DNA from: Shigella phage sb4
Length of the DNA stretch: 64,000 bases
Strand: one strand, 5' to 3'
Sequence record: PQ666542
Both the position numbers and the translations under genes were made by a program. The notes under the pieces are model-generated. The model had not been told where the DNA came from. It saw only the letters and a program-made list of their open reading frames with translations, and ran no database searches. Below are positions 5,741-6,490 of this stretch, piece after piece. Every line of letters starts with the position of its first letter. The stretch's first letter is position 1.

Positions 5741-6397
5741 TTGATTATGGGGCTTCGGCCCCTATTCTCGAGGAAACAAGTGATTATTTCTAAGTTTGTT
5801 AAAGTGAAAATTGTACCATCAAATTTTAAACATTATCAATCAAAGGGTTATAAATTAACACCTCTTGGAGCGGTTAAACATGGATTTAGGTATTATGAAA
5901 TTGATGTTAAAGTTGAAGACATTAAAGGTAGTACCGCGTATGTAAAATGCCGTTGCGATAAATGTGGAATTGAATATAACCAACGCATTGGAAGAAACAC
6001 TGATATTTGTCGTGATTGCCGTCATAAAGATAAAATGCGCAATAATTCATATGGTTCCGCGAATAAAGGAAAAACAGTAGAATGTATGCATGGCGTAAAT
6101 CATCCAAGATGGAACCCAAATAAATCTGAAATGCGTGAATATATTTCATTGGTATATAAAGAAACTCGTAAGCATAAGAAAATTTGGTCAAAATGGCCAA
6201 ATGCTGATAAAATAGGAGTGTGCGGTACAAAAGGTGCTTACCAACTTGATCATAAGGTATCTATCAAATACGGTTTTGATAATTTAATTCCTGCTGAAAT
6301 AATTGGCGGTATTAATAATTTAGAAATAATCACTTGGGAATCTAACCGAGAAAAGTCAAAAAGAAATAGTGTAGATCTTTGGGATTTACTAGAATGA
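5741..6397 (+). CDS. Free-standing HNH-family endonuclease with an N-terminal Cys4 zinc-binding motif (putative homing endonuclease)
   Basis: ORF between genes 18 and 19. Motifs CRCDKCG...CRDCRH and an HNH-like segment YQLDHKVSIKYGF...NNLEIITWESNREKS. The real start is probably GTG 5780 after an AGGAAA Shine-Dalgarno, not the TTG at 5741. Flanked by hairpins at 5749-5762 and 6405-6422. Confidence 0.6.
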   Translation: MIMGLRPLFSRKQVIISKFVKVKIVPSNFKHYQSKGYKLTPLGAVKHGFRYYEIDVKVEDIKGSTAYVKCRCDKCGIEYNQRIGRNTDICRDCRHKDKMRNNSYGSANKGKTVECMHGVNHPRWNPNKSEMREYISLVYKETRKHKKIWSKWPNADKIGVCGTKGAYQLDHKVSIKYGFDNLIPAEIIGGINNLEIITWESNREKSKRNSVDLWDLLE

Positions 6398-6423
6398 TTC
6401 TAAAGGCCTGTTTCGGCAGGCCA

Positions 6424-6490
6424 TATAAATACACTATATCCTTAATTCTTTAATTCTATATGCCCTAGGTTAAACATAGGGATATAAATA
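6424..6490 (+). promoter_or_regulatory. Two T4-type late promoters (6424-6431 and 6483-6490) upstream of gene 19
   Basis: Two exact TATAAATA motifs. Confidence 0.6.

Follow-up and report, generated by a model that had tools for sequence, protein, structure and literature searches.

What occupies the junction between the tail sheath gene (gene 18) and the tail tube gene (gene 19) in Shigella phage sb4, and how might it have come to be there? We have examined a 64,000-nt stretch of this Tequatrovirus (T4-like) genome (PQ666542), hereafter referred to as the window, in which the spacer between the two genes is 764 bp long. In T4 the corresponding spacer is 116 bp and gene-free. A preliminary description of the window, prepared from the letters alone, had correctly stated that T4 has no gene at this position and had proposed that the additional DNA is a homing endonuclease cassette. 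Our analysis leads us to the view that the inserted gene is probably a free-standing (intronless) homing endonuclease gene, with a product that would combine an N-terminal Cys4 module of the treble-clef type and a C-terminal His-Me finger nuclease of the D-H...N...N (HNN) type. The genes and signals of the 18-19 junction described below are on the plus strand and, unless another genome is named, positions are those of the window.

The insert and its reading frame

Comparison of the junction in 13 genomes, a check that had been suggested at the outset, defines the boundaries of the element. Relative to T4, the insert extends from 5742 to 6396 and its 655 bp stand in place of the 7-nt sequence ACGGTGC. 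The boundaries are the same in all eight of the occupied genomes compared, and the empty site is intact and identical in the other five. This empty site reads GGTTAAT/ACGGTGC/ATTCTAAAGG in T4, IME340, Ozark, Shfl2 and bov9_1, and the sequence of the empty T4 junction is GGTTAATACGGTGCATTCTAAAGG. The pentamer TGATT is present at both ends of the insert (5742-5746 and 6395-6399), which may reflect microhomology at integration or chance.

The longest open reading frame (ORF) spans 5741-6397 and encodes 218 amino acids when counted from a TTG codon. Two upstream starts, this TTG at 5741 and an ATG at 5747, were considered and dropped for want of conservation: this segment has a frameshift in RB3, and phiC600P9 and PP01 lack the ATG. 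The conserved start is a GTG at 5780, which is also the start used in the annotation of RB3 (RB3_165). We therefore assign the endonuclease coding sequence to 5780-6397, giving a protein of 205 amino acids. The TGA stop codon occupies 6395-6397, with its final A (6397) being a native T4 base. A Shine-Dalgarno sequence, GAGG (5770-5773), is placed 6 nt upstream of the GTG and is kept in all of the occupied genomes that were examined. The frame is intact, as was first reported, and it is genuine, well past what chance would produce: homologues are matched at E = 2e-137 and the protein belongs to phrog_5104 of PHROGs (E = 3e-91), a group listed as being of `unknown function'.

Sporadic occurrence and two alleles

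A set of 538 phage records matches the flanks of the junction in a comparison with the region 5200-7000, which is 98.7% identical to that of Escherichia phage ELT1. The junction is occupied in 117 of the approximately 538 records, or about 22%, and presence is sporadic; the remaining records, T4 among them, retain an intact empty site. The gene is therefore not a fixed component of the locus in all relatives, the pattern that the preliminary description had set against its own proposal. Nor is it peculiar to the window genome. The window type, which we term allele A and which was counted by its allele-specific part, is found in 47 records, and 39 of these 47 copies are at least 99% identical. 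Allele B, which encodes 201 amino acids and is represented by PP01, ECML-134 and Yersinia phage PST, is present in 70 records with exactly the same boundaries. The copy of allele B in Pu-Krd-SF5 carries an in-frame stop and is a pseudogene.

The two alleles have in common the first 66 nt, comprising a hairpin, the Shine-Dalgarno sequence and seven codons, together with roughly 225 nt at the other end, which are about 93% identical. The middle segment of approximately 385 nt, which encodes the zinc-finger domain, is unalignable (window 5736-6400 against PP01, locus L042, 1336-1990). To judge from this distribution of similarity, the difference between the alleles looks like a swap of the DNA-binding module by recombination. 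Within Tequatrovirus the alleles share about 51% protein identity, and allele A is 62-68% identical to the copies in Citrobacter and Klebsiella phages; on these sequence relationships the phylogeny of the endonuclease is incongruent with that of the hosts.

The same insert is found beside different forms of gene 18. The inserts of the window and of phage sb3 are 100.0% identical and yet the final 150 nt of gene 18 are just 91.3% identical, with the sb3 sequence representing the T4 haplotype (98.7% like T4). In RB3, ADUt and phiC600P9 the end of gene 18 (150 nt) is 100% identical to that of IME340, a phage with an empty site. Since one insert adjoins different gene-18 haplotypes, either the cassette moves between backgrounds or the backgrounds recombine at its edges. 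The population pattern is the one classically associated with a homing endonuclease gene: presence or absence is precise, near-identical copies adjoin diverged flanks, there are two alleles and one copy has decayed. In this respect the proposal of a homing cassette is supported.

A patch of gene 18 with 12 synonymous differences from T4 (5621-5680) was considered as a cleavage site or immunity marker and rejected. The window-type patch is also found in IME340 and Ozark, both of which have empty sites, and the T4-type patch is found in sb3, which is occupied. The patch is a recombining haplotype that is unlinked to the insert.

Two database entries deserve mention. MG010123.1, a 32 kb record named `Staphylococcus phage SAJK-IND', holds a Tequatrovirus 18-19 region (97.9% identity in DNA and 99.5% in protein), and PV654520.1, a 142 kb record named `Pseudomonas phage vB_PSGBLB0006', holds an allele-B-like copy. 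Both are probably mislabelled or contaminated.

Domain structure of the protein

A search with the full-length protein identified homologues in 37 clusters, none of which has a Pfam domain; those that have been named are all `hypothetical'. Alignment of the homologues splits the protein into two halves. The N-terminal half, residues 1 to about 100, is a putative DNA-binding domain in which three cysteines, C59, C62 and C77, are invariant and a fourth, C80, almost so. These four residues make up the Cys4 zinc finger (5954-6019), a motif that had already been recognized in the translation. In the AlphaFold2 (AF2) model strands 54-58 and 65-69 flank the knuckle that carries the first cysteine pair, and the second pair opens a helix (residues 78-86). 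The predicted geometry of the finger is treble-clef-like. Some relatives match DUF4379 (PF14311), a family described as a probable treble-clef zinc finger, namely eight of 29 sequences in one set (best value 8e-4) and 13 of 137 in another (best value 7e-6), with one relative passing the Pfam cut-off at 24.9 against 24.5 bits. The window protein itself has no Pfam match to DUF4379.

The C-terminal half, residues 105-205 approximately (6092-6394), has a much wider distribution. A profile of this domain retrieved 353 proteins in a word-indexed search and, in an exhaustive search with HMMER, 3,591 clusters (clustered at 50% identity), of which 1,282 had E <= 1e-10. From among the best-scoring members (the best 150 of the 3,591 clusters) 137 diverse representatives were aligned, and the only invariant columns are D157, H158, N180 and N189, which are D57, H58, N80 and N89 in domain numbering. 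The D157-H158 pair is likewise invariant in alignments of 29 and 44 sequences. The predicted catalytic motif occupies 6248-6346, with D157-H158 encoded at 6248-6253, N180 at 6317-6319 and N189 at 6344-6346.

The AF2 model of the domain alone has a predicted local distance difference test score (pLDDT) of 91.8 and a predicted template modelling score (pTM) of 0.78. In this model the Asp-His pair ends strand 154-158, N180 opens strand 181-185 and N189 is placed on helix 186-192. The predicted core is thus a β-hairpin followed by a helix, the layout of the ββα-metal type, and the HNH-like motif of the preliminary description can be given the more exact form DH...N...N. The nearest structural matches are the Gme HNH endonuclease (PDB entry 4h9d) followed by the HNH endonuclease of phage GVE2 (PDB entry 5h0o), and T5 SciA is also among the closest. 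With the full-length model, Foldseek returned from the PDB only matches with E of at least 0.4, of which the HNH domain of NmeCas9 was the top. The structural scores are individually weak, as expected of a core of about 50 residues, and their clustering in one superfamily is not random. When the 137 representatives were scanned individually against Pfam, HNH_4 was the commonest match (17 of 137, best E 1.8e-4) and HNH was found in nine of 137 (best E 2.4e-3). We therefore accept an assignment to the HNH / His-Me finger class, of the HNN type, with the clade lying at or past the edge of existing sequence profiles.

The nuclease domain is joined to a variety of N-terminal modules in the relatives. 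NUMOD3 is present in 15 of the 137 representatives (best E = 3e-15), HTH_23 in 13 and HTH_17 in seven; other helix-turn-helix (HTH) modules, DUF4379 fingers and DUF7487 repeats also occur, and the nuclease domain is found alone in proteins of about 100-120 amino acids. Interchangeable DNA-binding modules on a fixed nuclease are typical of homing enzymes, and for those of phages a `beads-on-a-string' build has been described (PMC2988022). The top-scoring representative of the family (P0150, 268 amino acids) has two stretches matched as nuclease domain in one protein.

Position of the gene in distant relatives

A tblastn search of phages (E <= 1e-5) gave 236 records, with hosts that include Escherichia, Klebsiella, Acinetobacter, Salmonella, Serratia, Enterobacter and Shewanella. 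Relatives fill the same slot in many genera of the Straboviridae, and in Bp7 the copy is again placed between genes 18 and 19. A scan of IMG/VR with family motifs identified 34 loci. The homologue is directly downstream of gene 18 in all 20 of those that retain the sheath gene and, in the loci with downstream DNA, it is directly upstream of gene 19. At these loci gp18 is 34-72% identical and the endonuclease 31-60% identical. The same placement directly after the sheath gene is seen in 12 Tequatrovirus loci and, by annotation, in three reference phages. Sinorhizobium phage phiM7 (Emdodecavirus; L047, 3001-3573) has a 33%-identical homologue directly after the sheath gene. Here the next gene is NosD-like and not the tube gene, so the association seems to be with the end of the sheath gene.

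Among phages at about 70% gp18 identity the endonuclease copies range from 35% to 60% identical. Remoter relatives that have the nuclease domain alone in common with the window protein are located elsewhere, for example beside homologues of the window ORF at 10797-12371 (L024, L025 and L028). The family profile detected no paralogues in the 64-kb window. We read these data as indicating a lineage of homing enzymes that is specific for the sheath junction and that has moved repeatedly among phages of the T4 superfamily, with vertical descent and frequent loss adding some share.

A broader proposal can be put forward tentatively. The domain may define a large HNN His-Me clade (the 3,591 clusters, which have no Pfam model), with a T4-superfamily branch that is locked to the post-sheath junction from coliphages to phiM7 and environmental myoviruses; alleles A and B would then be rival enzymes with different specificities competing for one locus. 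If this were so, the lock on the post-sheath position would imply that the target is deeply conserved and lies within gene 18 or immediately past its end.

Expression signals

The preliminary description placed the gene between two stable hairpins and assigned it a late promoter of its own. Both hairpins exist, but only one of them belongs to the insert. This is a C(UUCG)G tetraloop hairpin, GGGGC-UUCG-GCCCC (5749-5762), which is predicted to fold just past the stop codon of gene 18. It lacks a U-tract and is present in carriers of allele A and of allele B. The downstream hairpin, GGCCUGU-UUCG-GCAGGCC (6405-6422; fold z-score -3.1), is identical in T4, where it follows gene 18, and lies outside the cassette. 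The claim concerning the promoter has to be withdrawn. Two copies of the late-promoter motif TATAAATA precede gene 19, at 6424-6431 and at 6483-6490. Both are identical in the T4 spacer, where they represent the late promoters of gene 19, and lie outside the cassette; a search of the insert for TATAAATA found none. With both motifs and the 6405-6422 hairpin being native to T4, and no terminator-like sites scored in the region, the idea of a cassette equipped with a late promoter and terminator was rejected.

The gene 18 late promoter has TATAAATA at 3725. Since the insert has no TATAAATA and no terminator-like site was scored, transcription of the endonuclease gene by read-through from this promoter is indicated. 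The new UUCG hairpin stands after the gene 18 stop in the place of the native hairpin and may so keep the ends of gene 18 mRNA undisturbed. In the farther relatives Bp7/L010, L011 and L005 the motif TATAAATA is placed immediately before the ORF, and late expression therefore seems to be general for the family.

Weight of the evidence and alternative explanations

Several observations count against the interpretation of the gene as a homing endonuclease. Firstly, the window protein is not recognized by sequence profiles. Pfam, the other check that had been suggested, gives only noise (HypA, E = 0.16) and no HNH, HNH_3, HNH_4 or HNH_5 match at E <= 1. The HNH_4 and HNH matches among the 137 representatives are all sub-threshold, and recognition of the clade as HNH by sequence profile is at best marginal. 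NCBIfam has no match to the window protein, and searches of the PDB with phmmer and hmmsearch, using single sequences and two family profiles, retrieved no nuclease. Secondly, we found no report in the literature of cleavage, a target site or homing for any member of the family. Thirdly, no flanking polymorphism that separates carriers from non-carriers was found, and the mechanism of immunity is thus one that we infer. Lastly, placement after the sheath gene at gp18 identities of 34-48% could also reflect vertical inheritance with repeated loss. The PDB searches also produced matches to leucine-rich-repeat proteins, which we judge to be spurious; an NLxIxxWxxN stretch was matched repeatedly, a low-complexity coincidence.

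The constancy of position raises the question of whether the nuclease is kept for the benefit of the phage, either as a late-expressed weapon against competing T4-like genomes, which it would cut in the 18-19 region (marker exclusion), or as a helper in DNA processing, with its place held by selection, vertical descent and occasional loss. That every sheath-retaining relative from IMG/VR has the gene directly downstream, even at the lowest gp18 identities, and that Bp7 and phiM7 do likewise, is in keeping with such a role, as is the persistence of full-length proteins with intact motifs in many genera. Nevertheless, about 78% of close relatives, T4 included, are viable without the gene. The pseudogenized copy, a phylogeny unlike that of the hosts and the identical insert beside different flanks are also difficult to reconcile with this explanation, which we consider to be unlikely. 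It overlaps homing rather than excluding it.

The absence of a significant HNH profile match could alternatively mean that the product is HNH-like but binds DNA without catalysis, for example as a regulator of the 18-19 late transcription unit, or that it is a decaying remnant. The zinc knuckles that are usual in many HNH domains are missing, and a setting with a hairpin and read-through would suit a regulator. However, the four residues expected for HNN catalysis are the sole invariant positions in 137 sequences, as selection for catalysis predicts, and nearly all carriers retain an intact ORF. We regard a dead protein as a very unlikely solution. A nuclease that assists the terminase in packaging, as in HK97-like cos phages, is scarcely credible even though the large terminase gene 17 is just upstream of gene 18, two genes from the endonuclease, and the GVE2 HNH endonuclease is the next-closest structural match after Gme HNH, since T4 and most relatives without the gene package their DNA normally, the T4 record describes gp17 itself as having nuclease activity and the variety of N-terminal DNA-binding modules in the relatives, such as NUMOD3 and HTH, speaks for homing enzymes that are site-specific.

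Proposed mechanism

Returning to the homing endonuclease interpretation, we infer by analogy that the protein cleaves DNA, as a nick or as a double-strand break, at a target in the junction and that the gene thereby homes. Catalytic roles can be proposed from enzymes of the I-HmuI type. H158 would be the general base that activates water, D157 and N189 would hold a divalent metal ion and N180 would brace the β-hairpin. Gme HNH and T5 SciA, which are among the closest structural matches, have been described as nicking endonucleases, and the GVE2 HNH enzyme is likewise a nicking endonuclease. The zinc-finger domain would read a long asymmetric site.

The gene would be transcribed late from the promoter of gene 18, with read-through of the UUCG hairpin that the insert brings, and the GTG codon would support translation at a low level. 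When a related phage without the insert infects the same cell, the enzyme would nick or cut the 18-19 junction of that phage, and recombinational repair off the insert-carrying genome would copy the cassette, with part of the adjoining DNA, into it. Protection of the carrier would most likely come from the interruption of the recognition site GGTTAAT/ACGGTGC/ATTCTAAAGG by the insert. This is the simplest model of immunity given that carriers and non-carriers are not distinguished by their flanks.

Comparison with known systems

I-HmuI, the nicking HNH enzyme encoded by an intron of Bacillus phage SPO1, has a D-H...N...N site with no second histidine, and it has separate DNA-binding modules. 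The active-site type and the modular arrangement are those proposed here for the 18-19 protein. The differences are that I-HmuI is intron-encoded with its nuclease domain at the N-terminus, whereas the 18-19 gene is free-standing and its nuclease domain is C-terminal. I-HmuI does not appear, by sequence or by fold, among the matches listed.

Free-standing HNH homing endonucleases, mobA-E, are well known in T4-type phages, and their spread is presumed to occur via break repair in co-infection (PMC2988022). The 18-19 gene resembles MobE and the Mob family in being a free-standing HNH-type gene in a spacer between conserved T4 genes with a patchy distribution among relatives (PMC2988022). It appears to be distinct in that an indirect comparison gave no sign of sequence similarity to Mob proteins, since the tblastn search retrieved essentially those records that have an 18-19 occupant (236, compared with 538 flank matches) and the family profile matched no other ORF in the window, and in that the N-terminal module is different. 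I-TevIII, from the nrdB intron of RB3, is also an HNH-family homing enzyme of the same phage group, and RB3 carries both genes. I-TevIII is encoded within the intron and, as a dimer, makes a double-strand break (PMC2988022); it belongs to a different family and a different genomic site.

The 18/19 site is absent from the table of T4 homing endonucleases (PMC2988022), and a published count of such genes lists no `other HNH' entry under RB3 (PMC2993671) though RB3 carries the gene as RB3_165. We found no description of the 18-19 endonuclease in the literature, reviews included. The same gene is represented by PHROG 5104, by gp19.1 of VR7 and phiC600P9 and by RB3_165, with no function given in these entries. 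In GenBank it is mostly a `hypothetical protein'. The exceptions are `homing endonuclease' in ADUt and vB_Ro_M12a, `HNH endonuclease' in Ptacy1496 and `type II restriction endonuclease' in Roth21 and Roth78. Since a few recent records carry such names, the idea of a nuclease or homing function has already surfaced in automated annotation.

Significance

The element is of an ordinary kind among phage mobile elements, and a specialist is unlikely to be surprised by it. What is noteworthy is that the nuclease clade falls outside the coverage of Pfam and that the gene keeps to one junction across a wide range of T4-like phages. The T4 catalogue of seg, mob, hef and I-Tev genes, which is widely used in studies of selfish DNA and of phage-phage competition, gains a probable homing endonuclease together with a homing site, 18/19, that is new to it. 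The cassette also accounts for a length polymorphism that is common in Tequatrovirus genomes around the sheath and tube genes, and for the local mosaicism there.

The practical use lies in annotation and in an experimental system. The nuclease domain occurs in thousands of barely annotated metagenomic clusters, and characterization of one member would allow many `hypothetical proteins' of therapeutic and environmental phages to be annotated. Alleles that appear to be domain-swapped at one site offer a natural system in which to follow a change of DNA-binding module in homing enzymes.

Neighbouring genes and other observations

The left flank is gene 18 (3761-5740), a 659-residue ORF that ends with TAA at 5738-5740, is collinear with T4 gp18 and lies outside the element. 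The sheath gene differs from that of T4 at 113 nucleotides and the encoded protein at 17 amino acids, including the non-conservative changes G129C, G397W and R550C. The right flank is gene 19 (6505-6996).

A second small ORF, of 193 amino acids, is found between genes 19 and 20 in Bp7 (L048, 3769-4350) and in L004 (5385-5966). In Bp7 it is annotated as an `HNH endonuclease', and Pfam gives a weak SegE GIY-YIG match (E = 0.0046). Gene 20 of Bp7, just downstream of this ORF, is annotated as two pieces. The 19-20 spacer of the window (6997-7067) is gene-free. Elsewhere in the window, at 17477-17496, the motif TATAAATA is present in three overlapping tandem copies.

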